This document shows, piece by piece, positions 2,757-17,370 of a stretch of DNA of 64,000 nucleotides. The position numbers and the translations under genes were made by a program. The notes under the pieces are model-generated. The model was given only the letters and a program-made list of their open reading frames with translations, had not been told where the DNA came from and did no database searches. Where the stretch lies: contig CANFCG010000002.1 in the NCBI GenBank assembly GCA_947445115.1, positions 36,204-100,203 of the forward strand. The letters are read 5' to 3'. The DNA is from Comamonadaceae bacterium (GTDB taxonomy: Bacteria > Pseudomonadota > Gammaproteobacteria > Burkholderiales > Burkholderiaceae_C). How positions within the stretch are numbered: position 1 is the first letter of the stretch; each line of letters starts with the position of its first letter.

Positions 2757-4310
2757 CTAAATCCGCGGCCCACGCTTATAGGTCACGAGCTCTTCGTACC
2801 ATCGGTCTGGGTTACTGTTTCCTACGCTACGGCCTTCATATTCAGCCTTCACACGTGTACCCGCTTCAAAATCTGTCCAAATGGTGGATTTTGTCCGAAA
2901 CCCCCAAACATTGATGTCGTTGTGCTCGATTTTGTAGGTTTTAAATGTTCCTGCGGGCACGATAATAGTTTCGTAAGCAAGAACTCTCCCATTTCTTTCG
3001 GCCCACCCTTTTTGTCCCGCTTTTGGTCCTGCACCAGGAATAGTGTTCACGCGGGCCTCCCACTTTTTCCCGACAGATATACCCTCAGCAGGCAAGGCTG
3101 GTAGTGGTGGATCGAAAGTAGAGCCATCACCACCTTTGATAAATTCCCCCGCTGTTGTGAATAGTACGCCGTTCGAAAAAGTCACAATGCCATCTTTGAT
3201 GCTTAAAGTCTCACTTCTGCGTCTAGAGACTGGGTTTTTTGTGTATCCGTCATATCGAATGAATTCACCAACATCGCCCACTCTGAACACTTCGGCATAG
3301 CCATTACGAATAATTTGTCCTGATTTGTCAGCTACTGCAACCGTTTTGGCTTTGTTAAATCTGTCAATAGCCGACATGGCCGATTGCGTTAGCAGTCCAT
3401 TGGGATACTTTTGCACAAAGGCAAAAAACGGATCAGCTGACTTGCTGTCTTTAATTTTGTCCCACTCAGCTTTTTCAATATCAAACTGCTTCTCTTTTTC
3501 GTTTTCAGTCAGCTTGACCACCTTTTTAATGCCTGAGTTGAAGACGAAATCGTCTTCTAAGCTGGTCGTCTCCCACGGGATTTGTGCCCCATCGCTGGCT
3601 TTTCGGACTTGGAAGCGCACCCGCTTAAACACATTTTCAATACTGGCCGATGGCTTTTGTAGCTCTTGGAGCAAGAATCCTGTGTACAGCCCATTTTTCG
3701 ATCCAACTGCGCCGTCTGCCGCCACATTGCCAGGGGCCGTTGCGTAAGCGAGGAACGTACCCGTAGGCGCATCGAGCGGCGCAAGCCCTTTCCCTGTGGA
3801 CGTTTTGCCATCGGCAAACGGGTTGTCGCGGCAAGCGTCCAGCACGACAATGTTCATACGGTTGCCAGCAGATTTAAAAGCACTCATCACCGCTTCAATA
3901 TCCACTGCTTGCTTGGGCACATCGGCTGCCGAGTTCAATTTAGCATCCACGGGCACCATGTAATTGCGCCAATCGAGCTGCAAGCCATGCCCAGCATAGA
4001 ACAGCATGCCAATGCCTTGTTTGCCGCTTAAATCTTTACCTGTGCGTTCGATCGCTTCCATCATCTTGGCACGATCAGAGTCAATCACTTCAATCACACC
4101 AAAGCCCATGTTGCGCAGTGTTGCCGCCATGTCTTTGGCGTCGTTAGATGGATTCGCCAGCGCCATATTGCCAGGGTAGGCCGAGTTACCAATGATGAGC
4201 GCGATACGCACATCATTTGGCGCTTGAGCGTTGGCGCTGAAGGTGAGTAGGCCAGCGGCGCACAAGGCGCTGGCGAGAAGTTGACGGGGTAGTGCTCGGA
4301 TAAGTCGCAT
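2757..4310 (-). CDS. Exported caspase-fold (peptidase C14) protein, tandem paralog 2
   Basis: The N-terminal roughly 290 aa are nearly identical to paralogs 1 and 3 (AQAPNDVRIALIIGNSAYPG..., YAGHG, DACRDNPF). The C-terminal third is diverged. The start overlaps the paralog-3 stop (TAATG at 4308-4312). Confidence 0.88.
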   Translation of the reverse strand: MRLIRALPRQLLASALCAAGLLTFSANAQAPNDVRIALIIGNSAYPGNMALANPSNDAKDMAATLRNMGFGVIEVIDSDRAKMMEAIERTGKDLSGKQGIGMLFYAGHGLQLDWRNYMVPVDAKLNSAADVPKQAVDIEAVMSAFKSAGNRMNIVVLDACRDNPFADGKTSTGKGLAPLDAPTGTFLAYATAPGNVAADGAVGSKNGLYTGFLLQELQKPSASIENVFKRVRFQVRKASDGAQIPWETTSLEDDFVFNSGIKKVVKLTENEKEKQFDIEKAEWDKIKDSKSADPFFAFVQKYPNGLLTQSAMSAIDRFNKAKTVAVADKSGQIIRNGYAEVFRVGDVGEFIRYDGYTKNPVSRRRSETLSIKDGIVTFSNGVLFTTAGEFIKGGDGSTFDPPLPALPAEGISVGKKWEARVNTIPGAGPKAGQKGWAERNGRVLAYETIIVPAGTFKTYKIEHNDINVWGFRTKSTIWTDFEAGTRVKAEYEGRSVGNSNPDRWYEELVTYKRGPRI

Positions 4311-5998
4311 TAGGCACCTCGTGTGATGGTCAAAGCTTCTTCAGTCCAGCGATTCGTTTGACCATTTGGTCTGTGCAGTTCAATTTGCTGCTTAATCGGA
4401 AAGCCAAAATCGGACAGCATCCAATAGGTGCTTTTGACACTTTGCCCCGTACGACTGTTTGAGATGACCTGTATTTTGAATGCCTTAAAAGTACCTGCGG
4501 GCAAGGTGATGGTTTCTAGTGCGAGTACTTGTCCCTCTTCTTCAATCCAATTACCAGCGCTGGCTCTGCGCAGATTTGTATTTTGACCTTGTTGTCTTTG
4601 GATTGTGTTGGGACGTGCATCTAAGTGTGGCCGCATGGGTAACTCGCGGCGTAGCCTCAACGTATTGATGAGTAGCACCGAGGGTGCCTCCGCGTTGCTC
4701 AATCCACCCGTCACAACTCCCACGGGTGTCATGCTGCTGCGTGAGGTCCATTTTTTGCCTACGATCAAACCATCGGCGGGTCGCATAGGGCGCGGAGGAT
4801 CATAAACATTGCCTTGCCCGCGCATGATCTCGCCTCTTGTGGTAAGTATTCCGCCGCCTGCAATGCGTACGACTCCATTGTCAATCGACACAATGCGCGG
4901 GCTTTTGCTTTTTAGCTCTTGTCCCGTGTCGTCTTTGCGTAGCAGTTCGACCGAATCACCGATACGATAAACCGCTTGGTTTACATCATGCCGAATGCCA
5001 CTTTTGTCGGTATAGGCGGTTACTTTTGCGCGGTTCAAGCGGTCAATCACACCCATCGCGCCTTGCGAAAAGAGTCCAGAAGGGTATTTTTGTACAAAGG
5101 CATAAAAATCGCCGACGTTGGTGGAGTCTTTGATTTGCTCCCAATCCACGCTTTCAGTGTCAAACAAAGTGTCTTTTTCTTCTTCGGTCAGTTTGACCAC
5201 CGCCTTAATGCTAGTTTTAGCACCCGCATTAAAAACAAAATCATCCTCTAAGCTGGTTGCTTCCCACGGAATTTGTGCTCCGTTACTGGCCTGCCGCACG
5301 GCAAAACGAACCCGCTTGAATACGTCTTCAATACGTGCGTTGGGTTTTTGTAGTTCTTGCAGCAGATAGCCAGTGTAGAGGCCATTTTTTGAACCTGCTT
5401 CGCCGTCTCCAGCAACGTTTCCTGGCGCTGTGGCATAGGCTAAGAATGTGCCCGTTGGCGCATCCTGCGGCGCTAAACCTTTGCCAGATGCGGTCTTGCT
5501 ATTGGGGTCACTAGAAAAGGGGTTGTCGCGGCACGCGTCTAGCACCACGATGTTCATGCGGTTGCCTGCCGATTTAAAGGCGTTCATCACGACTTCAATA
5601 TCGACGGTGTGGGCGGGCACATCTTTTGCGGAACTCAGCTTTGCATCCACTGGCACCATGTAGTTGCGCCAATCGAGCTGCAGGCCATGTCCAGCATAAA
5701 ACAGCATGCCTACACCGCGCTTTCCTTGCAGGTTTTTTCCTGCTTTGGCAATGGCATCCGTCATACTGGCTTTGTCGGCATTGGTCACCTCAATGACGCT
5801 AAAACCCATGTTGCGCAAAGTTGCGGCCATGTCTTTAGCATCGTTCGCAGGATTCGCCAGTGCCATGTCACCAGGGTAGGCCGAGTTACCAATGATGAGC
5901 GCAACGCGCACGTCGTTTGGCGCTTGAGCTGTGGCGCTGAAGGTGAGCAAGCCAGCAGCGCAAAGCGCGATGCAGAGCAATTGGCGCGGCAATTTCAT
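4310..5998 (-). CDS. Exported caspase-fold (peptidase C14) protein, tandem paralog 3, with Arg-rich insertion in the C-terminal domain
   Basis: Same signal peptide and YAGHG/DACRDNPF dyad. AAGAGG ribosome-binding site before ATG 5998. Carries about 55 extra residues relative to paralogs 1 and 2. Confidence 0.88.
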   Translation of the reverse strand: MKLPRQLLCIALCAAGLLTFSATAQAPNDVRVALIIGNSAYPGDMALANPANDAKDMAATLRNMGFSVIEVTNADKASMTDAIAKAGKNLQGKRGVGMLFYAGHGLQLDWRNYMVPVDAKLSSAKDVPAHTVDIEVVMNAFKSAGNRMNIVVLDACRDNPFSSDPNSKTASGKGLAPQDAPTGTFLAYATAPGNVAGDGEAGSKNGLYTGYLLQELQKPNARIEDVFKRVRFAVRQASNGAQIPWEATSLEDDFVFNAGAKTSIKAVVKLTEEEKDTLFDTESVDWEQIKDSTNVGDFYAFVQKYPSGLFSQGAMGVIDRLNRAKVTAYTDKSGIRHDVNQAVYRIGDSVELLRKDDTGQELKSKSPRIVSIDNGVVRIAGGGILTTRGEIMRGQGNVYDPPRPMRPADGLIVGKKWTSRSSMTPVGVVTGGLSNAEAPSVLLINTLRLRRELPMRPHLDARPNTIQRQQGQNTNLRRASAGNWIEEEGQVLALETITLPAGTFKAFKIQVISNSRTGQSVKSTYWMLSDFGFPIKQQIELHRPNGQTNRWTEEALTITRGA

Positions 5999-6012
5999 TT
6001 CAACCTCTTGAT

Positions 6013-7692
6013 TTAGGGTGTTAGTGTGGTCGTAAAGAGTTGTTGAGGCGAACGGTGGTTAAAGCTCGTGGCTGAAGGCATCAGCTGTCCAGCCCTGTAG
6101 TCGGCCGACCAAGTCCCCCATCGCGCATTCAACGTCGTAATCGCCGGATTTCGATAATTAAAAGTGGCGACGACAATTTCTTGATTGTGCTCGGCGCCAG
6201 CTTTCACTTGCCACTCTATCGTGCCGATGCCTAATGCTCCAAATTGAATATCAGCCTGACCTTGGAGACCCACTCTAAGTGGTAATTTCCAAAGCGCGCC
6301 GTTTTTTAATGTCACAATTTGCTCCGCAAAAAGAACTGCTAATACGCGTCCATCTGAGGCGATTTTGTCGCCCGTGCTCATCAGCGTGTACGCCTCTGTC
6401 TTTTCTGCGACTGTGACTTGAAGCTCAGATTTTTTATTGAATATTCGGTCAACCATCTGTAGCGTTCCGATGCTTTGACCTTGCGCCAGATTTGTCATGT
6501 TGACCGCTGCTTTGACGATTGCATTGGCGGCTGCGTTTGATGGGGGCGTAGCCATTGCAATGAATGGCGTAGCTCTTGCCGCCGCCAATGCCAACTCTAG
6601 CGAGGCAGCTTTTTCACGCGCCTTTGCAAGCTCTAATTCTTTGGCTGAGTCTTTTGCTGAAGTCTGCCGATCTTCTTGTGCTCTTGCGGCGGCTCTGTCT
6701 TCGCGCTCTTTAGCGGCGGCCAACTCTCTAGTCACTTCACGTAGCCTCGCCTTAGCCAATCCCACAAAAGAACCATTTGGGAATTGCTCGATATACGCCT
6801 CTAGTTCAAACGGGCGATTGCTGCTTTTGATGCTGTCCCAATACGAGAGTTCCACTGCCATCGTGTTCGGGGCCGCTTGCATCACTTGAATGGGCTGCGG
6901 CGCTGGCGTGGGTGTGAGGGCTGCCATCACAACAGGAGGACTTTTTTTGAAGTAAAAGTTACCCTCGAGTGCTGTGTTTTCCCAAGGCGTTTGCTGGTTG
7001 GCGCTGTCTTTGCGCACGTTGGCACGTACACGCTTAAAGACTTCTTCAATCGGTATATCGGACATTCGCATGACAGCAGCTAAGTGCTGGGTGTAAAGCC
7101 CGTTATTGCCCGCGCCATCGGATGCCACCGAGCCCGGCGCTGTGGAGTACGCCACTAGCGAGCCACTTGGCGCGCTCATGGTGGCAAGACCTGCTGTGCT
7201 AGAGCGCGAGCCTTTGGCAAAGGGGTTATCGCGGCAAGCATCCAAGATGAGCAAGTTGATCCGGTTTTTGGCGGTTTCCATCTTCTCGAGGATGGATTGC
7301 GCATCGACCGAATCAAACGCTACTTCGTCTTCAGCGCGAATGTCCGCATCGACCGGCACGAGATAGTTTGCGCCTTTGACTTGCACGCCGTGCCCTGCAA
7401 AATAAAACAACCCTACGCCACCCGCCTGCTTGAGCCGTTCGCCAAAGTCACGCACCAAGCGCTGCATTTCGCGCCTAGTGGCGTTCTCGGCCTTGAGGAC
7501 GGTAAAGCCTGCTTCGGTCAGCGATGATTCCATCAAGCGCACATCGTTGACCGGGTTTTTGAGTGGTGACGACTTGTAATTGCCATTGCCAATCAAAAGC
7601 GCCAAGCGGCTCTCGCCTTGAACCTGTGCGTGCGACGCAAGCGCCGTGCATGCCAGGGTTGCAATTAATAAGAGTATTCGTAGGAGATGCAT
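6013..7692 (-). CDS. Exported caspase-fold (peptidase C14) protein with charged coiled-coil linker and a distinct C-terminal domain
   Basis: Signal peptide MHLLRILLLIATLACTALASHAQ. Dyad FYFAGHGVQ and LILDACRDNPFA. A/E/K/R-rich helix AAKEREDRAAARAQEDRQ...ELELAKAREKAASLELALAAA. The C-terminal roughly 180 aa are unrelated to paralogs 1-3. Confidence 0.85.
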   Translation of the reverse strand: MHLLRILLLIATLACTALASHAQVQGESRLALLIGNGNYKSSPLKNPVNDVRLMESSLTEAGFTVLKAENATRREMQRLVRDFGERLKQAGGVGLFYFAGHGVQVKGANYLVPVDADIRAEDEVAFDSVDAQSILEKMETAKNRINLLILDACRDNPFAKGSRSSTAGLATMSAPSGSLVAYSTAPGSVASDGAGNNGLYTQHLAAVMRMSDIPIEEVFKRVRANVRKDSANQQTPWENTALEGNFYFKKSPPVVMAALTPTPAPQPIQVMQAAPNTMAVELSYWDSIKSSNRPFELEAYIEQFPNGSFVGLAKARLREVTRELAAAKEREDRAAARAQEDRQTSAKDSAKELELAKAREKAASLELALAAARATPFIAMATPPSNAAANAIVKAAVNMTNLAQGQSIGTLQMVDRIFNKKSELQVTVAEKTEAYTLMSTGDKIASDGRVLAVLFAEQIVTLKNGALWKLPLRVGLQGQADIQFGALGIGTIEWQVKAGAEHNQEIVVATFNYRNPAITTLNARWGTWSADYRAGQLMPSATSFNHRSPQQLFTTTLTP

Positions 7693-7710
7693 AACGGCAT
7701 TATTTCAGGT

Positions 7711-9576
7711 TTACTTAATCTCATCCACCCGTAGCATCGCCGCACCAAACGCATCCGAACAATGTGGATTGGCTTTGCGTGCGGCGGGATTGCTGCATGC
7801 CGCAGTTGATCCTGCTTCAGAGTTGGTCAAGAGCGCCCCCAGCTCGGCGCGGCCATCGGCGTTATTCAGTGATGCGGTGAAGGGCCCCGCTTTGTTTTTA
7901 GCCAGAGCGGTTAAATCGCGCGGACCAGCGCTGACGATGACGAGTAGCTGATCGGTGCCAGCAGGGCCTTGGGCGCGCACCTTCCAATTGGCTCTTGGCA
8001 GTGCTAGCGTTTGGCCTGCTTCGATGCGATTATTTTTATCTAAATCGTTGGGAAATAAAACGTAGAGCGATTCGTTGTCTGAACCCGCTAGCGCCACATA
8101 CACGTAGCCCGCCTTATCGGATTTAACGCTGAAATCTAAGGTGTCTTGGCCAATTTTTAGTTGTGTTTTATTAGTGGTGAGGGTGACGTTGCGCTTGCCG
8201 TCGCGCTGCTCAAATAAGCGCTTCAGCGCTTGTTCGCCCGTTAGTGAGGTAACCACTGCAACAGGGGCGGGTGTGGCTATAGCCGCAGGCTCAGAGGCCA
8301 CGACGGACGTGGCTTGCGGAGTCGGTGGTGTAGGCGTAGGGACAAGGGCGACAACAGGGACTGCTGGTGCAGTGGCAGCAATCGCGGCTTGGCTAAACCA
8401 AGCGGGTACAAAATCGGCGTTGCCTGTGAGCGAGATGTTGTGCGCTTTGTATAGCGGATCGCCAGCCATGCGGTCGTTGATCTTGGTTTGTGCACACTGT
8501 TTAATCTCCTCGATGCTGATGGAGCCCGATTTGTCCAAGTCCTTTGCGTCTCGCAGCATGCAGTCGCGCATGAACTCGGTGGCTAAACCACCTTTTTGCT
8601 CATCGTCAAAGCTGACTTCATCATTGCGCGAGCTAGAGATATGCACGATGTCTTGTGGCAGCGCCTTTTGCTCCACGGCTTCCACCATCAGGTTGCGGGT
8701 TTTAATATTGACGGGCTTGCTGCATTCTTCGCTAATGGCGGCAAATTTAGGGCGGATAGCGCCTTCGTCGTTTTTGTTGAAGATGCCGCGTGTGCGCACT
8801 GTCGAGGCATTACTAATGATGCCGCCCGAGTGGCACGCGTCGTACATCACAAACAGCTTATCGGTTTTGTTGGTAATGGGCGCAAGCAAAGTCGCCATTT
8901 CCTTATTGGGAATGGTTGCGTTGGTGGTTCCTTCGTAGGCCAACAGCGCCTCAACACAGCCGCCAGCGGCTTTGTCCATATAGCGCGTGCCGTGGCCAGA
9001 GTAGTGAATAAACACACGATCGCCATCTAGCACTCGCTCATTTAAAGCCGCCAGCGCAGCCCTGATGCCATCCGCCGTGGCTTGATCGTCTTGTAAGTAG
9101 GTGATGTTGCTGGCGGGCACCTGCATCGCCTGTGCCATTTGCGTGGCGGACTCGCGGTCAATATGCGCACCCGGCAATTGCGGGATAGAGGGTTCGCCGT
9201 ATTTGCCAATGCCAATGATGAGTGCGTGGCGATTGCTACGCGAGCCCAGGCTACGCACGCCCAAGGTCAAAGCGGTATTGCCTTTGGCCTCACGCCCTGC
9301 GGACAGGCCAGATGCTGCGGACGCTCCGGCACTCAAAGCCAGACTGCTAGCGCGAACCCAGCCAGATTTACCGCCAGCTTGCACCTGCGCCCAGCCGCCT
9401 TCAAGACTCAGCACTTGCACGGCAGAGCCGACGGCAAGCTGCGAGACAACGCTGCTACCAGCGAGTTTATCGGTGCGCATTTCGGCGGCACGGGTGAGGG
9501 TAGAGCTTTGCGCTAAGGCGTAACTGGCAAGGGTTGCAGCCAAGATGGCAGCGAGAATTTTGTAGCTTGATTTCAT
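7711..9576 (-). CDS. Exported SH3b-like / caspase-fold (C14) / DUF4384-like three-domain protein
   Basis: Signal peptide ...ASYALAQ. SH3b-like segment GSAVQVLSLEGGWAQVQAGGKSGWVRASSL. Dyad IHYSGHGT and VMYDACHSGG. EF-hand-like loop DLDKSGSISIEE. Pro/Thr/Ala linker. The C-terminal segment (GQDTLDFSVKSDKAGYVYVALAG...LFPN...AGQTLALP) resembles DUF4384. Confidence 0.8.
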   Translation of the reverse strand: MKSSYKILAAILAATLASYALAQSSTLTRAAEMRTDKLAGSSVVSQLAVGSAVQVLSLEGGWAQVQAGGKSGWVRASSLALSAGASAASGLSAGREAKGNTALTLGVRSLGSRSNRHALIIGIGKYGEPSIPQLPGAHIDRESATQMAQAMQVPASNITYLQDDQATADGIRAALAALNERVLDGDRVFIHYSGHGTRYMDKAAGGCVEALLAYEGTTNATIPNKEMATLLAPITNKTDKLFVMYDACHSGGIISNASTVRTRGIFNKNDEGAIRPKFAAISEECSKPVNIKTRNLMVEAVEQKALPQDIVHISSSRNDEVSFDDEQKGGLATEFMRDCMLRDAKDLDKSGSISIEEIKQCAQTKINDRMAGDPLYKAHNISLTGNADFVPAWFSQAAIAATAPAVPVVALVPTPTPPTPQATSVVASEPAAIATPAPVAVVTSLTGEQALKRLFEQRDGKRNVTLTTNKTQLKIGQDTLDFSVKSDKAGYVYVALAGSDNESLYVLFPNDLDKNNRIEAGQTLALPRANWKVRAQGPAGTDQLLVIVSAGPRDLTALAKNKAGPFTASLNNADGRAELGALLTNSEAGSTAACSNPAARKANPHCSDAFGAAMLRVDEIK

Positions 9577-11201
9577 GAATAACTCCTAAAAAATGCATGG
9601 GCAACATTGGCTTTTGTGATGCTGCCCTCTAACAGTGTGTAGCTGGATGCGATGACATCGCTGGGCATGCAGCTTTGCAAATGCACCAGCTGATCGATAG
9701 GGCCTGCAACCCCGACGCGGCTGGCAAGTTCTGACCAGCGCAGCTTCGCGGGCCAGCTGCTCGTGGCGTCGCCGCCCACGATGCGGCAGTCGGGCGCGTG
9801 TGCTTCTAACCAGTCGATTAAGTGATCGAGCCCTGTGTCTGCAAATGGTTTGTCGTGTGCGCGTTGTATGGGCATCACGCCGCAAACCTTATTGGGATTG
9901 GCTTGCACGGGTGCTGCTGGTAGGCCACACCAGTGGTTGCGTCTAAAATTATTCCAAGCCCTGAGGGCGGCTAAAAACAATAAAACAGCCCCTGCCGCTA
10001 ATTGCAAATCCAAAAAAACGGGAAGGATGTTGAGCGATAAGTAGCTGATGCCTAAAAGCGCACCGGGCAACACCACCAAAGCCGCGTCGAGAGAAGCAAT
10101 GCCAAAACGGCGTACCCACAAAGCCAAGCCGACGCATAGGCCAATCGCGATCAAAGCTTGAATCCAGCGCGGCACTTCTTGCACAAAACGTGCGTTCAGC
10201 GCGTTATCCAGCACCGTTGCTAGGCTTTCAACGCCCGCTTGAAAAGAGACCAACGGCGTGGGGTGAATGTCGTGCAAGCTGGGTGCTGTCGAGCCAATCA
10301 CCACAACCTTGCCTTTGAACGAAGGTACGTCCTGCTTGGGTTTGTCACCTTCTGCTTTAGCAAACACATCAGCAAAACTCATTCGCGGATACGCGTCAGC
10401 GCTCTTGCGCCAAGCGATGAGTGTGCCCGTGTCCATGCCCTGCTTGTCTAAGTTTTGCGGAATGTTAAGCAATTGATCGCGCGCTTGCACCGACTCACTG
10501 CTAGCTGCACCGATAGCCGCACTCATGGGTGTGGACTGGATGACCGAGCCGTCTGTGAGTGTTTCAAAGTAGCGATAGCGACGCAAAACGCCATCGCTAT
10601 CAGGATAGCCATTGTTAAAGCCTAAATTGCCTGCTGCGATATTGGGCAACACAGGGACGATGACTGCCAGCGTCGCGTTGGGGCGTCCTTCCTCTGGCGC
10701 TTTGACCCACAGAGTCGGCAAATCTTTGCGCGTCAGCGCACTGTGCTTGTCATTGGTGACAGGTAGTAACCTGATGACTGAGTAGTGGCTGTGCAAGCTT
10801 CGCTTGGCGGACTCGTTAAAGGCTGCGTCTCCGCCCGGGCTTAATCGGTCGGCATCGGCAAAAGCAATGTCCCACACAATAGCCAGCGGCTCTTCGCGCT
10901 CGATAAAGTCTTGCACGCTTGCCAGCGTATCGCGTGGCCAAGGCCAGCGGCCAAACTCTTTGCTCATACGGGCGAGCGAGGCTTCGTCAATATCTACAAC
11001 GACTAGTCTGGGGTCAGGTTTTGCCGCATGAAAACGATTACGTACCATCGTGTCGTAAGTGGTTTGCGAGAGACCACTAGAGACTTTGAGATAAGTCAAA
11101 TCGAGCACAATCCAAGCGGAAAAAATAACCACCAACCCCCACGTCACAGCCCCAATGGGTAGGGCCGCGAGTGCTTTAAGGGAGGCGAGTAAGGATTTCA
11201 T
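9573..11201 (-). CDS. CHASE2-domain membrane sensor with unassigned roughly 125-aa cytoplasmic C-terminal tail
   Basis: N-terminal TM helix. Periplasmic region has CHASE2-type motifs FGRWPWPRD, DSDGVLRRY and HDIHPTPL. Three TM helices follow (residues about 345-415). The tail has no recognisable kinase, cyclase or GGDEF motifs. The stop overlaps the next gene's start (ATGA 9573-9576). Confidence 0.75.
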   Translation of the reverse strand: MKSLLASLKALAALPIGAVTWGLVVIFSAWIVLDLTYLKVSSGLSQTTYDTMVRNRFHAAKPDPRLVVVDIDEASLARMSKEFGRWPWPRDTLASVQDFIEREEPLAIVWDIAFADADRLSPGGDAAFNESAKRSLHSHYSVIRLLPVTNDKHSALTRKDLPTLWVKAPEEGRPNATLAVIVPVLPNIAAGNLGFNNGYPDSDGVLRRYRYFETLTDGSVIQSTPMSAAIGAASSESVQARDQLLNIPQNLDKQGMDTGTLIAWRKSADAYPRMSFADVFAKAEGDKPKQDVPSFKGKVVVIGSTAPSLHDIHPTPLVSFQAGVESLATVLDNALNARFVQEVPRWIQALIAIGLCVGLALWVRRFGIASLDAALVVLPGALLGISYLSLNILPVFLDLQLAAGAVLLFLAALRAWNNFRRNHWCGLPAAPVQANPNKVCGVMPIQRAHDKPFADTGLDHLIDWLEAHAPDCRIVGGDATSSWPAKLRWSELASRVGVAGPIDQLVHLQSCMPSDVIASSYTLLEGSITKANVAHAFFRSYS

Positions 11202-11252
11202 GGCTGTAAAGATATGTATATTCGTTTATAGCCCATCGCTGCCTAGGCCGAC

Positions 11253-11268
11253 TCCTATGTTTATAGGA
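11253..11268. promoter_or_regulatory. Candidate operator TCCTAT-GTTT-ATAGGA, 51 bp upstream of the CHASE2 gene start
   Basis: Perfect inverted repeat (7-bp arms CTCCTAT/ATAGGAG at 11252-11269) in the 86-bp gap after the CHAT gene. The same motif recurs at 14405 and 15506. A TATAAA -10-like hexamer lies about 23 nt downstream on the minus strand. Confidence 0.55.
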
Positions 11269-11287
11269 GGCGAGTTAATAAAAGGAG

Positions 11288-14200
11288 TTACCGCCCCCCA
11301 TCCCCCACCAACGCATAAGGCGCCCAATAAGCCGGGTGTGCCGTAGCGGGGTTTGCCATGACTGTCAGCATCGCTTGGCGCAAGCTCTCCGCCTTGGCTT
11401 CTGTAGGTTTGCTTTGGTAATTTTTGAACGTTTCGGTGGTGAGCGTCATGGCACTCTCGCTATCCACCGCCCAGTGCGTGACGAGCAAGCTTCGGCTACC
11501 CGCATAAAAGAATCCACGTGCCAAGCCAGAGAGCGCTTCCTCCGCCTTGCCATCCGCTGCTGCTGTGTTGCAGGCACTCAGCACCACCCAATCCGCATTC
11601 AGTTTGAGTGTGAGTACGTCTTCTAAAGTCAGTAACGGCGCGAGCACGTTGGCTGCATCGTCCTTGGTGCCAGCCATAGCCAGTGCGGGCTGCGTGAGGT
11701 TGGGCAGGTCCCCCGCCATGAGCCCGTGCGTAGCGAATGCCACCACACGCTGCTTGGCAAGATTCCCGTTTTTGTTTTGCGCCAGCACGCTCTCACGCGT
11801 GGCGGCGCTACCGAGAATCAGATCTTTCGCAGCGTTTGCGCCCAGCGTTTTGGCAATCGCTAAAAGTTCATCGCGCGTTTCGGGTAGCTCTGGAATGTCA
11901 GCGTACTTCAGGGCGCTTTTCGGGTCTTCTTTTTCTAAATCAACGGCGGTTGCGGCGCGTGTCAAAACGACCTTACGCACCGAGGCTAGGGCAGGCTCAG
12001 TGTGAGGGGCATTGGATGCTAGTGCGATATTGAACAACGGATCACCCCAAGCCAACATGGGCTGCTCTGCTGCTTTGTGAGGGAGCGAGCGCATGGACAG
12101 CCACGCGGCAACGCTAGGAACGTGAGTCACTGCCGCTTGCTTAATAAGCCAAGACGCATCAGAAACCGCTCGCCCTGAGTCTGTCGAAGGGTCGAAAGGC
12201 TGCGTCTCCAAAACACCAAACGGAATCTGCCCCAATGCGCCGCCCGCCGCAATGATAAGACTAGCCTTGCCCGCCAAGCCTTGCTGGACGGGGCTTAGCA
12301 GCTTGGCATAAAGCTCTTGCGCAGCAGCGTGGTCAAATGCGGGACGGCGATTGGCTGGAAGCCCTGCCACATCTAGGCTGACGCGCAGACGCTTGACGAG
12401 GCGGCTTAACTCAGCATGGCTCACAGCCGCACGGTGGAAACTGCCAGCACCGTCTTTTGAGAGCGCCCACACGTACACCGCCTCATCGGTAGGTTGCAGC
12501 ACGACCAGTGCTTCGTCATTTTTTAGCCGCGCTTGAATCTCGGTGGTGGAGGGCGGTAGCGGGCGCACCAGCTTCTCGTAATCGGGGAATGTCGCTTTGA
12601 TCTTCACTTGTACCTCTGCACGAGCCCGTTCAAGTAAGGCGATGCGCTCACGCATTTGCGCAGCAACGCTTGGCAGCGGGGAAGCCGCACCGCCTGTTTC
12701 GCCGCTCAAATAATTGCGCAGACCTTTGATCTCGTTACGCGCATCTTGGTCTTGGCGCACCAAGCCAGACAAGGCCTCGTTGGATGCAGCCGCCCTCACA
12801 GCCGCGTCGCCCAAAGCCTCTTGCACAAGGCCACCACGCAGCCAATCGGCAATGCCGAGAGCGGCTACTGCGTCGGCGCTATTGACTTGTGATGCAGCTT
12901 CTAGATAAGTCGAAAAAATCATTTCGCGCAACTCTTTGCGGATGCCGACGTTCTCCAAATAGTCCACGTTATCGGGCGACATGATGTTGCGAACAGCAGC
13001 TTGCAAAAGCGGGTAGGCCTGTGCGCGTGAGTCGGGCGTGCCCACGCGCCACAGCGCCACGCCTTGAAGCCCTGATGCTTGAGCCGTAAAAAAGTGCTGT
13101 CTTATTTGCCCGTTGCTCGCTAGACCTTGCCTGTATTGCTTTTCAAGAGATTCGGCCTCAGAAGCCAATAGCGGCAAGGCCTCCAGAGCTTTGTTGTTGT
13201 AGAGATAGACTACAGCGCGGTCGAGCGCGTAGCGAACGCGAGCTTTTAAGTCTTCGTCTATGCCCGCGCTGGCGTCTAGTTTTTGAAATTCGGCTAGCGC
13301 GTCTAGGTAGCGGTGTTGACCGATGAGGGCTTTAGCTAGATCACGGCGGATGGATGTGATGGCTAGATTAGTCTCTTCATAATTTAATTTTTGAAATCTT
13401 GTTAGCGCATCTGCCCTAAGTTGCTCAGCCTGAAAAAACTCTCTTTGCGCGTATCTGTAGTCAGCAACGCCATTGATCGCTGATGCGTGATTGCTGGGGG
13501 ACATGGTGACTTCTTCCAGCAGCCTTAAATAATCACGCATCGCTGCCTCTGCTTGGGAGTATTTTTTCGTGTCTAGTAATATATTTTGCTTGTATTGCAA
13601 AGAACGGAGTAGTTGCTGATAGGCGAAGTCTTTTTGCGCTTCACCACGAACGGTCTTCAGAAATTTGGTTGCCTGCCTAGCAAAATTGACGGCTTGTTCT
13701 GCATCTGTAACCGCTGCTGTCGCTTGTCCTTGCCTCATGTTGAGTTGGGCTTTAGTCGTCCATGAATAAGCTTGTGCGCGAGCTTTATCGCGCAGCGAAT
13801 CTTCATCCATTCTTTGTGTTGGTTGTGCAAATGCGATACTTTTTTCTGCATAAGCCAGTGCATCTGAATCTTTACCCAATAAATAAAAGGCATTGGCAAC
13901 ACTGGCTGCATAGAACGCTCTTTGCTCATCAGTGGTGGATGTGCGAAATGCCTCTTGATACCAAAAATTGGCAGTGACTATGTCCCCGCGAAATTTATAC
14001 ATAGCGCCCAAGTCATTTTTATACCGCGGCACATTGGGGAATAGTTCAGTGCCTTCTTTGTTGGCGTTAAATACGGCTATCGCATCACTCAATTTGAAAG
14101 CGGCTTGCAGTTTATTTTCTATTTGCTGCCGCAATTGATTTGTTTGAGCTCGCCTATTCGTAGGCTCTGCCAAGATTGCTCGGAGCTTTATCTCTTCTTC

Positions 14201-14347
14201 GGGAGCTAATTTTTTAAAGTTTTGCGCCAACACTGTCACTTCGCTTTGCGCTTTTGCCTCGTTGGCGCAGACGAGCCAAACGGACAGCGCAATAGCAACG
14301 GCGCAGACGAAGGCGGATAGGGCGTGGCTGATTTGCTCACGTAACAT
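11288..14347 (-). CDS. Exported (or membrane-anchored) TPR-repeat CHAT-domain protease-like protein
   Basis: Start is placed at ATG 14347 (MLREQISHALSAFVCAVAIALSVWLVCANEAKA|Q), which gives a signal peptide or signal anchor. A long helical TPR-like N-terminal region follows. The C-terminal CHAT domain has VAFATHGL (His) and DWVVLSACNTA (Cys). Confidence 0.8.
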   Translation of the reverse strand: MLREQISHALSAFVCAVAIALSVWLVCANEAKAQSEVTVLAQNFKKLAPEEEIKLRAILAEPTNRRAQTNQLRQQIENKLQAAFKLSDAIAVFNANKEGTELFPNVPRYKNDLGAMYKFRGDIVTANFWYQEAFRTSTTDEQRAFYAASVANAFYLLGKDSDALAYAEKSIAFAQPTQRMDEDSLRDKARAQAYSWTTKAQLNMRQGQATAAVTDAEQAVNFARQATKFLKTVRGEAQKDFAYQQLLRSLQYKQNILLDTKKYSQAEAAMRDYLRLLEEVTMSPSNHASAINGVADYRYAQREFFQAEQLRADALTRFQKLNYEETNLAITSIRRDLAKALIGQHRYLDALAEFQKLDASAGIDEDLKARVRYALDRAVVYLYNNKALEALPLLASEAESLEKQYRQGLASNGQIRQHFFTAQASGLQGVALWRVGTPDSRAQAYPLLQAAVRNIMSPDNVDYLENVGIRKELREMIFSTYLEAASQVNSADAVAALGIADWLRGGLVQEALGDAAVRAAASNEALSGLVRQDQDARNEIKGLRNYLSGETGGAASPLPSVAAQMRERIALLERARAEVQVKIKATFPDYEKLVRPLPPSTTEIQARLKNDEALVVLQPTDEAVYVWALSKDGAGSFHRAAVSHAELSRLVKRLRVSLDVAGLPANRRPAFDHAAAQELYAKLLSPVQQGLAGKASLIIAAGGALGQIPFGVLETQPFDPSTDSGRAVSDASWLIKQAAVTHVPSVAAWLSMRSLPHKAAEQPMLAWGDPLFNIALASNAPHTEPALASVRKVVLTRAATAVDLEKEDPKSALKYADIPELPETRDELLAIAKTLGANAAKDLILGSAATRESVLAQNKNGNLAKQRVVAFATHGLMAGDLPNLTQPALAMAGTKDDAANVLAPLLTLEDVLTLKLNADWVVLSACNTAAADGKAEEALSGLARGFFYAGSRSLLVTHWAVDSESAMTLTTETFKNYQSKPTEAKAESLRQAMLTVMANPATAHPAYWAPYALVGDGGR

Positions 14348-14404
14348 GGTGATTCTCTGTATGAATGGAATCAACATTGTTTCGCACAGCAGGTTTTTTG
14401 ACCA

Positions 14405-14420
14405 TCCTATATTCATAGGA
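14405..14420. promoter_or_regulatory. Candidate operator TCCTAT-ATTC-ATAGGA, 57 bp upstream of the TPR-CHAT gene start
   Basis: Perfect inverted repeat in the 86-bp gap between the OmpA-like stop (14434) and CHAT ATG (14347). 18 nt (CATCCTATATTCATAGGA) are identical to the copy at 15504-15521. Confidence 0.55.
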
Positions 14421-14433
14421 GGCGCACTGCCAA

Positions 14434-14976
14434 TCACTGCAAATTCACAATCTTCACGCGGCGGTTTTCTGCTGCTAGTGGATCGGTGGTGTTGGCGGGA
14501 TCGCTTGATCCTTTGCCCGCAGACGAGAGGCGTGTGCCGTCTACGCCTTTGCTGACTAAGAATTCGCGCACGCTATCAGCTCTGTGCTGCGACAGGCGCT
14601 GGTTGTAGTCTGCTTTGCCTTTAGCATCAGTGTGACCCTCAATGACAAATTTGGCCTCTAACAAGTCTTTGGATTGCATGGCTGCAGCCAAGTTTGCTAA
14701 GGATTCTTTGCTTTCAATTTTGACGCTGGCGGAGTTGAAATCGAATTGGATTTGCAGCGAGAGTGAGGCTTTTTCTGTAGCAATGACTTCTTGCGCTGTT
14801 GCCACATCGACGGTGAGATTGCGCACGCCGCTGAGGCTACGGGTGCGCGCCGCTGCGGGATAAGCGGTGCTAGCTGGCTTGGCTTTGAGCTGCTCAATCA
14901 TTTGTTCAGGCGTGGGCGTTTGCGCAAAAGCCGTTTGGCCTAGCAGAGCTAAGAAAAGTGTAGCTAGGGTTTTCAT
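14434..14976 (-). CDS. OmpA-family (peptidoglycan-binding OmpA_C-like) periplasmic protein
   Basis: Signal peptide MKTLATLFLALLGQTAFAQ. The C-terminal OmpA-like motif is IEGHTDAKGKADYNQRLSQHRADSVREFLVSKGV...RRV. ATG 14976 is preferred over the track's GTG 14985. Confidence 0.8.
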   Translation of the reverse strand: MKTLATLFLALLGQTAFAQTPTPEQMIEQLKAKPASTAYPAAARTRSLSGVRNLTVDVATAQEVIATEKASLSLQIQFDFNSASVKIESKESLANLAAAMQSKDLLEAKFVIEGHTDAKGKADYNQRLSQHRADSVREFLVSKGVDGTRLSSAGKGSSDPANTTDPLAAENRRVKIVNLQ

Positions 14977-14981
14977 AAGGG

Positions 14982-15461
14982 TCACTTCTTTCGTTCTGTA
15001 AAGATGATTTTGTCAATCAAACGCTCGCCTTTGTCGTCTATTTTTAACAGAAGCTCCGCATCGTATTGATTGGCTGATTTGTGCAGATCATGTGCATTAA
15101 TGGCTTTAGTGGCGCGGGTTGTATTCCAAATGCCACTGATTAATGAGAGCAATAGCAATGGATTTTTTGCTGCGACCGTACTCTTTGGTGGCGTAACCGT
15201 GACCTTGCCACCACCCGACTCAACCGATTGCAGCCATGTTTGGATGCGCGGCGGAATGGAGGTTGCCGTTGTGGCATTCATCACCGCCACATCAACGACG
15301 GGCAAACTGGCGGCAAGCGATGCATTGAGCGAGTGGTCAAAACCATCGAGATCAATAAACTCTAAGTGGGGCTTCGCCTCTATCGTCGAGGCTGACGGGC
15401 TGGCGCAGGCAGTAAGGAATGCGGCAAGGCTAATAGCCAATAAAGTGAATGCGTGTTTCAT
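14982..15461 (-). CDS. Hypothetical lipoprotein (first gene of the lipoprotein/OmpA-like pair)
   Basis: Lipobox AFLTAC after an N-terminal hydrophobic stretch. I recognise no family. It is tightly linked to the OmpA-like gene (stop 14982-14984, next ATG 14976). Confidence 0.6.
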   Translation of the reverse strand: MKHAFTLLAISLAAFLTACASPSASTIEAKPHLEFIDLDGFDHSLNASLAASLPVVDVAVMNATTATSIPPRIQTWLQSVESGGGKVTVTPPKSTVAAKNPLLLLSLISGIWNTTRATKAINAHDLHKSANQYDAELLLKIDDKGERLIDKIIFTERKK

Positions 15462-15505
15462 GAGTTGATTTTCACACGATTTGAATCTCTATGCTGGATG
15501 GGGCA

Positions 15506-15521
15506 TCCTATATTCATAGGA
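15506..15521. promoter_or_regulatory. Candidate operator TCCTAT-ATTC-ATAGGA in the divergent promoter region between the lipoprotein gene and the response regulator
   Basis: Perfect inverted repeat (7-bp arms ATCCTAT/ATAGGAT at 15505-15522). It lies 44 bp from the lipoprotein ATG (15461) and 83 bp from the regulator ATG (15605). Confidence 0.55.
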
Positions 15522-15560
15522 TGCGAACCACTTTGGATGCGGACACAATAGAGGACATGG

Positions 15561-15580
15561 ATTCTTGCCTTCGCGGGAAT
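15561..15580. repeat. REP-like hairpin element, degenerate copy (ATTCTTGC-CTTC-GCGGGAAT, followed by GAC)
   Basis: Matches the ATTCCCGC-N4-GCGGGAAT family seen five more times in the window. The two arm mismatches would be G-U pairs in RNA. Confidence 0.6.
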
Positions 15581-15604
15581 GACGAACTTTTTTGGAAATG
15601 ATTC

Positions 15605-16246
15605 ATGCACATTGCCTTGGTTGAAGACAATGCACAGACAAGGGCTCGGATTGCGCAGCTCTTGCATGCGTGCCTACCAATGGCGCAGGTGACGCAGTTC
15701 GATCGTCTGGCTGCGGCCAAGCAGCATGCTTTGCAAGCCAAATCGGATTACTGGTTAATTGATTTAGGTCTACCCGATGGCAGTGGTATCGAGTTGATTC
15801 GGGCGGTGCGAGCTGAGGATGCTACGGCGCACATCTTGGTGATTTCGGTATTTGGCGATGTGGATAACGTGGTTGGCAGCATTCAAGCGGGTGCGAATGG
15901 CTATTTGCTCAAAGACGCGGTGGATACGGACTTATCAGGTGCAATGGCCGCGATGGAGCTGGGGGGCACGCCGCTCTCGCCCATGATTGCGAGTCGCTTG
16001 CTGGAGACCATGATGCCCGCCAAGCCAAGTGCAGTACGGCCTACACCAGTGCCTATTTTGACGCCCAAAGAGGCGGAGCTACTTAATTTACTCTCTCGTG
16101 GTTATACCTACGCCGAGTCGGCCGAGCTGATGGCGGTGGCCATTTCGACCGTGCAAACGCATGTGCGCGGCATTTATGCCAAGCTGGCCGTAGGTTCTAA
16201 AGCCGAGGCGGTGTTTGAAGCCAAGGTACTAGGGCTCTTGGCATGA
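15605..16246 (+). CDS. NarL/LuxR-family response regulator (receiver + LuxR-type HTH)
   Basis: Receiver domain with the phospho-acceptor context WLIDLGLPDGSG. C-terminal HTH LTPKEAELLNLLSRGYTYAESAELMAVAISTVQTHVRGIYAKL. Confidence 0.88.
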   Translation: MHIALVEDNAQTRARIAQLLHACLPMAQVTQFDRLAAAKQHALQAKSDYWLIDLGLPDGSGIELIRAVRAEDATAHILVISVFGDVDNVVGSIQAGANGYLLKDAVDTDLSGAMAAMELGGTPLSPMIASRLLETMMPAKPSAVRPTPVPILTPKEAELLNLLSRGYTYAESAELMAVAISTVQTHVRGIYAKLAVGSKAEAVFEAKVLGLLA

Positions 16247-17370
16247 TGCTGCTACCGCATCACCTGTCAGCGCTTTTGGTCACAGGGGCATCGCTTTTGA
16301 TGTGCCTGTTGCTTTTGGGCCTGTGGCGTGTGAGTAGCCAGCCACGCGAGCGGTTTTTGCTGCTGGCTAGCCTAGCGCAAGCGGTTTTTACGTTGCATCA
16401 AGTGCCTTTGTTTTTTGATAACGATGTCTTTGCCAGCTGGATAGGGCGAGCTACATTTTCAAGCCTGTTTGGCCTCTACCTGGGGTTGACAGCCTTGGTG
16501 GTCAACCTTTTACTGACGCCGCCTTCACGGGTATTGCTGCGCTTGACAAAGCTCTATCTGTGGCTAGTGGTGCCGTTTAGTTTTTATATTTTTGGTGTGT
16601 TTGATTTCACAGGCTATTTGAGTGGCGTCTATGTGCAACATCGCTTGACGGCCAATAATTTGATCGCCTTATTCATTAACGTGGGTTTGGTGTTTGTCGT
16701 GGTGCGCAGGTTTTATACGATGCAGCATCAACTGCTGCAAAGCCGCATGGATGCTGGGTTTGCACTGGAGCGCGCTCGGTTGACTGAACGCCAGCGCATC
16801 ATGTCGGACATTCACGATACGGTGGGCTCGCAACTGGTGGGGGTGCTGGCCCTCGTTCGCGGTGGCGCCGATGCCCAGGTGATTGAGCAGCACACAGCGG
16901 ATGCGCTGCAAGACTTGCGGATGGCGGTAGATGCTATTCAACCGATCAATGGAAACCTGGCCGCCGTGCTGGCTACGCTACGCCACCGCTTGCAGCCGCG
17001 CTTGCAAGCGGCAGGGCTTGGGCTGGTGTGGCGAGTGGATGATTTGCCGCGCTTGGACCATTTGACGCCCGTTATGGTGCAGCATATTCAGCGTATCGTA
17101 ATGGAGGCATTTAGCAACGTCATTCAACACGCCAATGCGACTTCGATCACATTAACGGCATTGAATCTGCACGAGTCTATGAGCATTGAAGTCAGCATCG
17201 CCGATGATGGCGTGGGTTTTGATAGCCATCTGTCGATAGCAGGGCGTGGCCTTGCCAATTTAAGTGCGAGAGCGCAGGCTATTGGCGCGGCGCTATTCAT
17301 CGCGCACCATGCGCCCCGAGGGACGTTGCTGCGCCTTACTCTACCGTCACACTTTTCGCCAAATTCCTAG
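16243..17370 (+). CDS. Sensor histidine kinase, HisKA_3 (NarX/DesK-like) type, with multi-pass membrane N-terminus and no large periplasmic loop
   Basis: About 5-6 hydrophobic helices fill the first 165 aa. The H-box is [17 protein letters not shown]. An ATPase region follows (ADDGVGF...GRGLANL). The start overlaps the regulator stop (ATGA 16243-16246). The last 35 nt overlap the glmS 3' end. Confidence 0.85.

Follow-up and report, generated by a model that had tools for sequence, protein, structure and literature searches.

Bacterial CHAT and Peptidase_C14 (caspase-like) proteases are widespread, and outside a few defence systems little is understood of their timing and role. A 64,000-nucleotide (nt) stretch of a Comamonadaceae bacterium genome (assembly GCA_947445115.1, contig CANFCG010000002.1, positions 36,204 to 100,203; hereafter the window) carries a cluster of such genes in three transcription units, namely a lipoprotein/OmpA-like pair, a CHAT protease gene, and a CHASE2 membrane protein gene followed by three caspase-like genes. 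The question that this locus raises is what switches the three units on. Each of them is preceded by the same palindrome, TCCTAT-N4-ATAGGA, and a NarL/FixJ-type response regulator and a histidine kinase are encoded divergently beside them. Here we argue that the palindrome is probably the operator of this adjacent regulator, which would act through it to activate the promoters of the cluster together with that of its own gene. What is new is the sequence of the half-sites and the set of target genes; the type of switch is already known.

An exhaustive pattern search of the window finds exactly three matches to TCCTAT-N4-ATAGGA, one upstream of each transcription unit of the protease cluster (Table 1), and these are the three copies that had been located in an earlier inspection of the letters (the sequence-only reading). 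That reading had also taken the motif to be specific to the locus, and indeed no additional copy appears in the 64 kb when up to two mismatches are allowed. None of 100 dinucleotide-preserving shuffles of the window gave any match; TCCTAT occurs seven times and ATAGGA four times in the window, and three of each sit in the palindromes. The 6-4-6 core is perfect in all three copies and in 18 from relatives, and the seventh position is symmetric only in part. A 7-4-7 form had been claimed throughout, which describes the copy upstream of CHASE2 (11252-11269) and understates the one at 15505-15522, whose arms extend to 9-4-9 (GCATCCTAT-ATTC-ATAGGATGC, 15503-15524), but fails for the copy upstream of the CHAT gene, which is 6-4-6 only. 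The distances of 44, 57 and 51 nt to the start codons and of 83 nt to the regulator gene had been measured correctly, as had the two internal gaps of the cluster, both of 86 nt. Each copy is made up of two inverted half-sites of 6-7 bp around a fixed short spacer, the arrangement of a dimeric GerE-type operator. A longer, GTG-initiated CHAT open reading frame (ORF; 11288-14437) that would render the second palindrome coding was rejected because orthologues align from the ATG at 14347 and a signal peptide follows that start.

Is the element preserved beyond this one genome? A genome-collection search with the CHAT protein retrieved ten loci (given here by L numbers) from metagenome-assembled genomes (MAGs) of Comamonadaceae at 39-67% identity; eight have a perfect palindrome, one has a one-mismatch copy and one, L002, has none. 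The related Comamonadaceae DNA, 331 kb in all, contains 21 perfect copies where base composition predicts 0.016; every one of them is intergenic and lies upstream of a gene, and the 10-kb unrelated flanks of the related loci contain no copy. L007 and L010 are fully syntenic with the window, with kinase and regulator divergent from lipoprotein-OmpA, then CHAT, CHASE2 and caspases; they retain all three palindromes, their proteins are 57-77% identical to those of the window, and the non-coding flanks of the palindromes have diverged. In a MAFFT alignment of the intergenic region between regulator and lipoprotein genes, the palindrome and two -10 blocks are the sole conserved islands, and in the upstream regions of ten CHAT genes nothing is invariant except the palindrome and AAYAAT. 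The phylogenetic footprinting that the sequence-only reading had proposed as a check thus comes out in favour of the motif, which is conserved while its flanks drift, as an operator should be. Palindrome 1 is conserved in L001 (one mismatch), L004, L007, L010 and L055, palindrome 2 upstream of ten CHAT orthologues or paralogues, and palindrome 3 in L007, L010, L011 and L019 despite flank divergence. Where CHAT paralogues have no regulator nearby (L003, L005, L006, L008, L009), the palindrome is found 55-70 nt upstream of the start codons, and the predicted regulon extends to these unlinked paralogues in other genomes. The palindrome-free CHAT gene of L002 sits 15 nt behind another gene and so lacks a promoter of its own.

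Rearranged loci indicate that the element belongs to the downstream promoter and that its copy number tracks the transcription units. L011 and L012, in which the regulator is 89% identical, lack CHAT; there lipoprotein, OmpA, CHASE2 and caspases are joined in a single operon without gaps, and the only palindrome is that of the divergent region. L007 has acquired a HigB/HigA-like pair between the CHAT stop codon and the palindrome, which still lies 56 nt from the CHASE2 start codon, and in L055 both remaining promoters carry perfect palindromes (4394, 5044).

The rearrangements themselves deserve description. The L007 insertion (9219-9862, minus strand) comprises a 109-amino-acid (aa) HigB/Gp49-like ORF and a 103-aa helix-turn-helix antitoxin-like ORF, both labelled by eye; the stretch from CHAT stop to CHASE2 promoter in which it sits measures 86 nt in the window and about 80 nt in L010. 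L055 (4224-5900), a close relative with 96% identity in GlmS, has its CHAT gene cut down to a 33-codon remnant and its regulator/kinase pair replaced by a gene resembling, by eye, a YgiD-type extradiol dioxygenase. Its deletions end at operators, which suggests recombination between the repeated sites. As gene content varies exactly at the palindromes (CHAT absent from L011, the remnant and the replaced pair in L055), one might regard them as recombination or mobile-element sites that flank cassettes and explain the gain and loss of CHAT and regulator/kinase. This is extremely improbable: there is no recombinase or integrase gene in the cluster, neither the fixed spacing to the -10 nor the association with regulator promoters in unrelated contexts would be expected, and homologous recombination between identical operators explains the deletions without any dedicated function.

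The position of the palindrome relative to the promoter is equally constant. With all sites anchored on the palindrome and read towards the downstream gene, two spacing classes are seen. In class A a -10-like hexamer begins 22-23 nt past the 16-mer; it is AACAAT or AATAAT (AAYAAT), invariant in ten loci, at CHAT promoters, TATAAA at four CHASE2 promoters, and CACAAT or CAAAAT at regulator promoters, where CA(C/A)AAT at this spacing is conserved in the window, L007, L010, L011 and L019. A -35-like hexamer abuts the palindrome directly, with a 17-nt spacer to the -10; it reads TAGCCA, TAGTCA, TGTCCA, CTGACA or GTGACA in relatives and is poor, with TGGTCA, TAGCCA, TGTCCA and GTCGGC fitting TTGACA at 2-4 of six positions. 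In class B the hexamer begins 32-33 nt past the palindrome, one helical turn beyond class A. Lipoprotein promoters belong here with C(G/A)TGT(G/A)AAAATC, an extended -10 invariant in five loci, as do the regulator promoters of more distant clades with CACAAT or GATAAT. Around the CHASE2 -10, GCTATAAACGA is conserved in the window, L001, L004 and L010. Two of the three -10-like hexamers picked out by the sequence-only reading, AACAAT and TATAAA, are conserved; the third, TCAAAT, assigned to the lipoprotein gene, is not conserved in orthologues and was rejected, the conserved block being TGTGAAAAT.

If transcription is assumed to start about 7 nt past the hexamer, the class A palindrome would cover positions from roughly -51 to -36 and be centred at -42.5 to -43.5, and the class B site is centred near -53 at the lipoprotein and distant regulator promoters. 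The class II-like position upstream of -10-like hexamers that had been suggested would fit the conserved 22-23 nt spacing, with the lipoprotein site one turn further upstream. To this can be added that palindrome 3 also lies 22 nt upstream of the regulator's own conserved CACAAT, which implies that the regulator would control its own gene. Were the regulator to bind as a repressor or dual regulator, the site occluding the upstream part of the promoter until a signal relieves repression, the evidence of conservation and co-occurrence would be identical, and a site abutting or overlapping the -35 position could block polymerase. We nevertheless regard repression as unlikely: the site lies wholly upstream of the -35-like hexamer rather than over the -10 or the start, the hexamers in question (TGGTCA, TAGCCA, GTCGGC) are weak, as activator dependence predicts, and sites of the -53 class fall outside the core promoter, where little effect would be expected.

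Table 1. Operator copies, predicted promoter elements and genes of the protease cluster; positions are those of the window unless a locus is named.
Feature	Position	Strand	Remarks
Palindrome 1	11253-11268		TCCTATGTTTATAGGA, spacer GTTT; 51 nt upstream of CHASE2 start codon (11201)
Palindrome 2	14405-14420		TCCTATATTCATAGGA, spacer ATTC; 57 nt upstream of CHAT start codon (14347)
Palindrome 3	15506-15521		TCCTATATTCATAGGA, spacer ATTC; divergent region between lipoprotein/OmpA and regulator/kinase operons; ~44 nt to lipoprotein start codon, 83 nt to regulator gene start
Predicted -10 TATAAA, CHASE2-caspase promoter	11225-11230	-	22 nt downstream of palindrome 1
Predicted -10 AACAAT, CHAT promoter	14376-14381	-	23 nt downstream of palindrome 2
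Weak -35-like TGGTCA, CHAT promoter	14399-14404	-	Abuts palindrome 2; 17 nt from AACAAT
Predicted extended -10 TGTGAAAAT, lipoprotein/OmpA promoter	15468-15476	-	32 nt downstream of palindrome 3; 6 nt before ATG
Predicted -10 CACAAT, regulator/kinase promoter	15544-15549	+	22 nt downstream of palindrome 3
Target unit 1, lipoprotein + OmpA-like	14434-15461	-	
Lipoprotein, 159 aa, no annotation	14982-15461	-	Lipobox LTAC
OmpA-like, peptidoglycan-binding	14434-14985	-	Pfam; signal-peptide-like N-terminus
Target unit 2, CHAT protease, 1019 aa	11288-14347	-	Signal peptide
Target unit 3, CHASE2 + three Peptidase_C14	4310-11201	-	
CHASE2 membrane protein	9573-11201	-	Pfam
Three Peptidase_C14 (caspase-like) genes, secreted	4310-9576	-	Pfam; signal-peptide-like N-termini
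NarL/FixJ-type response regulator, REC + GerE	15605-16246	+	Predicted binder
HisKA_3 histidine kinase, cognate	16243-17370	+	Start overlaps regulator stop codon
Jr-19feb18-27 cassette promoters	L005:664-700; L006:9194-9230; L008:2346-2382; L007:9919-9955		

Several features of these promoters may be set beside their geometry. The start codon falls 6-7 nt past the hexamer in the lipoprotein genes of the window and L011 and in the regulator genes of L007, L010 and L013; a Shine-Dalgarno sequence is absent from all of these, and their orthologues in other loci have leaders of 20-50 nt. The corresponding mRNAs are probably leaderless, and because a distance of 6-7 nt from hexamer to start codon fits leaderless mRNAs, the hexamers gain support as true -10 elements. 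The 4-nt spacer of TCCTAT-type sites always has AA or TT at its centre and, taken in the direction of the CHAT or CHASE2 gene, is RAAY at 15 of 16 sites (L009 differs), an asymmetry not needed by a symmetric dimer site that may reflect common descent, DNA bending or promoter orientation. The regulator's 5' leader contains an insert of about 50 nt common to the window (15556-15604) and L019 (3265-3318) and absent from L007, L010 and L011; the L019 insert includes a perfect hairpin, TCCCGC-CTTC-GCGGGA, with a T-run 9 nt further on, the stem in the window being degenerate, and the insert could be the remnant of a small element or an attenuator. Finally, four promoters of the MAG Jr-19feb18-27 share a near-identical cassette of ~80 nt downstream of the palindrome, with a second, small inverted repeat, CCTAG-N3-CTAGG, between -35 and -10. 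The L007 CHASE2 promoter resembles the CHAT-paralogue promoters of this MAG and not the orthologous CHASE2 promoters, and the shared cassette suggests either promoter replacement or gene conversion, or a second operator.

Which protein binds the palindrome? The gene product encoded next to palindrome 3 has the architecture to do so: a receiver domain (PF00072, 2.3e-16) is followed by a GerE/LuxR-type helix-turn-helix (PF00196, 7.9e-09, residues 151-204), and D53 (in WLIDLGLPDG), E7/D8 and K103 are invariant across 11 regulator orthologues, the phospho-acceptor aspartate and the lysine of a receiver domain being conserved among them. It aligns over its full length to the structures of LiaR/VraR (1.5e-20), DevR and NarL. 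None of the NCBIfam equivalogs (NarL, NarP, MadR, UhpA, RcsB and others) is reached, the best scores being 92 bits for MadR (cut-off 300) and 88.7 bits for NarL (cut-off 250). The partner kinase matches HisKA_3 and HATPase_c and resembles UhpB, NarQ and LiaS; it likewise fits no named NCBIfam equivalog. Judged by these comparisons, the regulator is a member of an uncharacterised subfamily of the NarL/FixJ type.

The strongest available argument for this protein as the binder is the company that the palindrome keeps. A search with the regulator protein yielded graded orthologues, and twelve contig look-ups together with the window, L007 and L010 provided 15 genomic contexts. In every one of them (52-89% identity) TCCTAT-N4-ATAGGA or a 6-4-6 variant of it is found in the region upstream of the regulator gene. 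Regulators at least 61% identical have a perfect palindrome in their upstream intergenic region, the copy in L019 having one mismatch. L015 and L111 have a palindrome at the regulator and no protease gene at all, the neighbours being a PhoD-like gene and large unannotated proteins. The palindrome thus travels with the regulator gene and not with the proteases, which points to the regulator as both the binder of the site and the controller of its own expression, and the sequence-only reading, which had named the adjacent regulator as the likely binder, gains from the presence of the site in these protease-free loci.

An operator of a different factor encoded elsewhere, whose adjacency to the regulator is coincidental or which itself controls the regulator, would account for the palindromes that have no regulator gene beside them and for the weakness of the covariation between recognition helix and site described below. 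It is nonetheless decidedly unlikely, given that a palindrome of the same layout accompanies every regulator orthologue examined, in 15 contexts whose neighbours are otherwise unrelated, that no other regulator gene is conserved across the loci examined, and that the 6-4-6/7-4-7 geometry suits GerE-type dimers. L019 also encodes a second NarL-type regulator, and this one is not accompanied by a site of the kind.

The more distant orthologues are associated with variants that retain most of the outer TCC…GGA and are perfectly symmetric in some cases and imperfect in others: TCCCAT-N4-ATGGGA in L017 and L023, TCCCCC-ATTY-GGAGGA, with a conserved mismatch, in L020-L022, the hybrid TCCCAT-ATTC-ATAGGA in L110, and CCCCAT-GAAT-ATGGGG in L112. 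With the exception of L112, in which no CACAAT/GATAAT hexamer was identified, these variants are followed, in the regulator's direction, by a conserved CACAAT or GATAAT at a distance of 31-33 nt. Set against the inner triplet of the half-site, the recognition helix has Arg with TAT and Lys with C-containing triplets in 11 of 12 cases, a correspondence confounded by phylogeny. The first 11 sequences paired QTHVR with TAT, RTHIK with CCC and QT(N/Y)xK with CAT; three later ones blurred the pattern (QTYIR with TAT, QTHIK with hybrid CAT/TAT, QSHVR with CCCCAT).

Both site types can occur in one genome. L013 (4162-4177 and 4185-4705) has a perfect TCCTAT-N4-ATAGGA at its regulator gene and, 45 nt upstream of a CHAT gene, the symmetric TCCCAT-ATTT-ATGGGA; its two CHAT genes are separated by a DUF2442/DUF4160 gene pair. 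Distant orthologues (L015, L016, L111, L112, L021, L022, L110) are paired with a kinase that is longer, at ~590-600 aa, and in many of them a PhoD-like gene belongs to the operon or lies close to it. Where they have divergent targets at all, these are not proteases but large proteins without annotation or, in L023, a two-partner-secretion exoprotein, and the regulator family would thus control varied secreted cargo.

The element might instead act as a hairpin in RNA or single-stranded DNA, whether as a processing or stability element of read-through transcripts, a weak terminator or a repeat of the repetitive extragenic palindromic (REP) kind. As RNA the copies have folding energies of -9 to -16 kcal/mol (z-scores -1.8 to -4.1), the genes on either side of the two internal copies are co-oriented, and distant clades change both arms together so that pairing is kept. 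Yet an Rfam search gave no match at the palindromes and a terminator scan made no call there, the stem being A+T-rich and the T-run absent. The copy at 15506 has a conserved -10 block on each side, the two pointing away from each other, and so would be transcribed from neither predicted promoter, the L007 copy stayed with the downstream promoter after the insertion, the TCCCCC…GGAGGA variant has a conserved mismatch, and the exact half-site is kept in nearly every full copy among regulators at least 61% identical, which fits base-specific recognition over pairing. REP elements and bacterial interspersed mosaic elements occur in many dispersed copies, typically at the 3' ends of genes, whereas here three locus-specific copies in 64 kb belong to a single cluster. 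We therefore hold a role as a hairpin to be very improbable.

On the operator reading, the observations on motif, specificity, conservation, spacing and co-occurrence can be joined into the following scheme, for which we infer the identity of the binder, the transcription starts and the direction of regulation. The membrane kinase encoded alongside would phosphorylate the regulator, and the phosphorylated regulator would bind the palindrome as a dimer, each half-site taking one helix-turn-helix. Where the site abuts a weak -35 and is centred at about -43, as in the promoters of CHAT, CHASE2-caspase and regulator genes, RNA polymerase would be recruited in a class II-like fashion; at the lipoprotein/OmpA promoter the site would act from one helical turn further upstream, about -53, of an extended -10. 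One signal would in this way switch on the three units that encode the envelope-targeted CHAT and caspase-like proteases, and positive autoregulation would raise the levels of regulator and kinase.

The gene families of the cluster, assigned by Pfam, agree with those given in the sequence-only reading. All seven target proteins are exported or membrane-bound as judged by signal peptide, lipobox or membrane helices, and the predicted place of action of the CHAT and caspase-like proteases is the periplasm or envelope. Pfam gave no match to the long N-terminal region of the CHAT protein, for which the sequence-only reading had used the label TPR. In the kinase 4-5 membrane helices are seen, and a periplasmic domain of any size is missing. 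PADLOC did not assign the cluster to a defence system and returned only generic caspase and MotB-like matches.

A number of points weigh against the scheme. Six loci (L003, L005, L006, L008, L009 and L055) have the palindrome and no regulator nearby, and there the binder would have to act in trans. The covariation between recognition helix and half-site is suggestive, a trend only. Activator sites are not classically centred near -53. The -10 and -35 elements and the start sites are predicted from conservation, and a simple sigma-70 consensus scan did not report the promoters; the weak fit to consensus is expected of activator-dependent promoters and would equally be shown by sequences that are not promoters. 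Lastly, a motif-first metagenome scan with the 18-mer CCTCCTATRAAYATAGGA, in which 80 of 86 stretches were examined, added one related locus only, L055. The other 79 are unrelated low-GC gut, fermentation or marine contigs without a homologue of any cluster protein, which shows that the 18-mer does not represent a repeat family of wide distribution. Among low-GC contigs from gut and fermentation samples (L024, L026, L043, L045, L050, L051, L058 and about ten more) CCTCCTATRAAYATAGGA recurs with the identical flank TTTAATACGGMTGATGTTATAGGGCATCCCAT; these are evidently one conserved sequence of an unrelated organism or element, and not this operator.

The closest precedent by analogy is the operator of SsrB, which also lends weight to the earlier suggestion that the 7-4-7 palindrome would be the dimer site of a NarL/LuxR-type protein. 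SsrB, a NarL-family regulator of pathogenicity island 2 (SPI-2) in Salmonella, has an 18-bp 7-4-7 tail-to-tail palindrome upstream of each SPI-2 operon and of ssrA; its palindromes are degenerate, a single heptamer can suffice, and binding was demonstrated experimentally (PMC2837388). The two systems share a NarL/FixJ-type regulator, inverted half-sites with a 4-bp spacer, and a copy for each operon and for the regulator's own promoter, and both sets of sites were identified by footprinting orthologous loci. They differ in that the half-site sequences are unrelated, that both half-sites are nearly invariant in the present case, where binding is predicted, and that the targets are type III secretion genes in the one and secreted CHAT and caspase-like proteases in the other.

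Other members of the wider family resemble the present system in part. In class II activation by LuxR/TraR-type proteins a dyad box of 18-20 bp is centred at about -42.5 and overlaps the -35 region; LuxR-type proteins are ligand-activated and have no receiver domain. The likeness lies in a GerE-type dimer site at a poor -35, whose predicted centre in the promoters of CHAT, CHASE2 and the regulator is -42.5 to -43.5; in contrast, the protein here is a response regulator, presumably under phosphorylation control, with a 16-18 bp site and a second promoter class ~10 bp further upstream. NarL and NarP bind 7-2-7 heptamer pairs with the half-site TACYYMT, and the ComA box is 6-4-6; these, too, are inverted hexamers or heptamers bound by dimers of the same family, to which the regulator's best NCBIfam and PDB similarities (MadR, NarL, LiaR/VraR, DevR) also lead. 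The spacer here is 4 bp as opposed to the 2 bp of NarL/NarP, and the half-site is TCCTAT rather than TACYYMT. The CsuR/CviR palindrome CTGTCCGATAGGACAG was considered as a relative and rejected, only the string ATAGGA being in common and the geometry being different. Literature searches for the palindrome motif and on the regulation of CHASE2/CHAT/caspase loci found nothing relevant.

As regulatory biology the proposed switch is conventional, combining a dimer site of the NarL family, placed in a class II-like way, with autoregulation. Its value lies in what it controls: a conserved operator and an assigned regulator provide an experimental handle on a whole protease battery, which a phosphomimetic regulator or half-site mutations should turn on or off, and a search for the motif can list the members of the regulon in complete genomes of freshwater Comamonadaceae. 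The envelope location predicted for all products narrows the functional hypotheses. More tentatively, and with some doubt, the palindrome and its regulator may be the master switch of an uncharacterised inducible system of envelope proteolysis. If so, a kinase that senses within the membrane would induce CHAT and caspase-like proteases bound for the periplasm along with a CHASE2 protein, a peptidoglycan anchor and unlinked CHAT paralogues of the same genome, and the caspase homologues would serve a signal-induced extracytoplasmic response, be it defence, predation or the lysis of self or kin, rather than act as cytoplasmic effectors of abortive infection.

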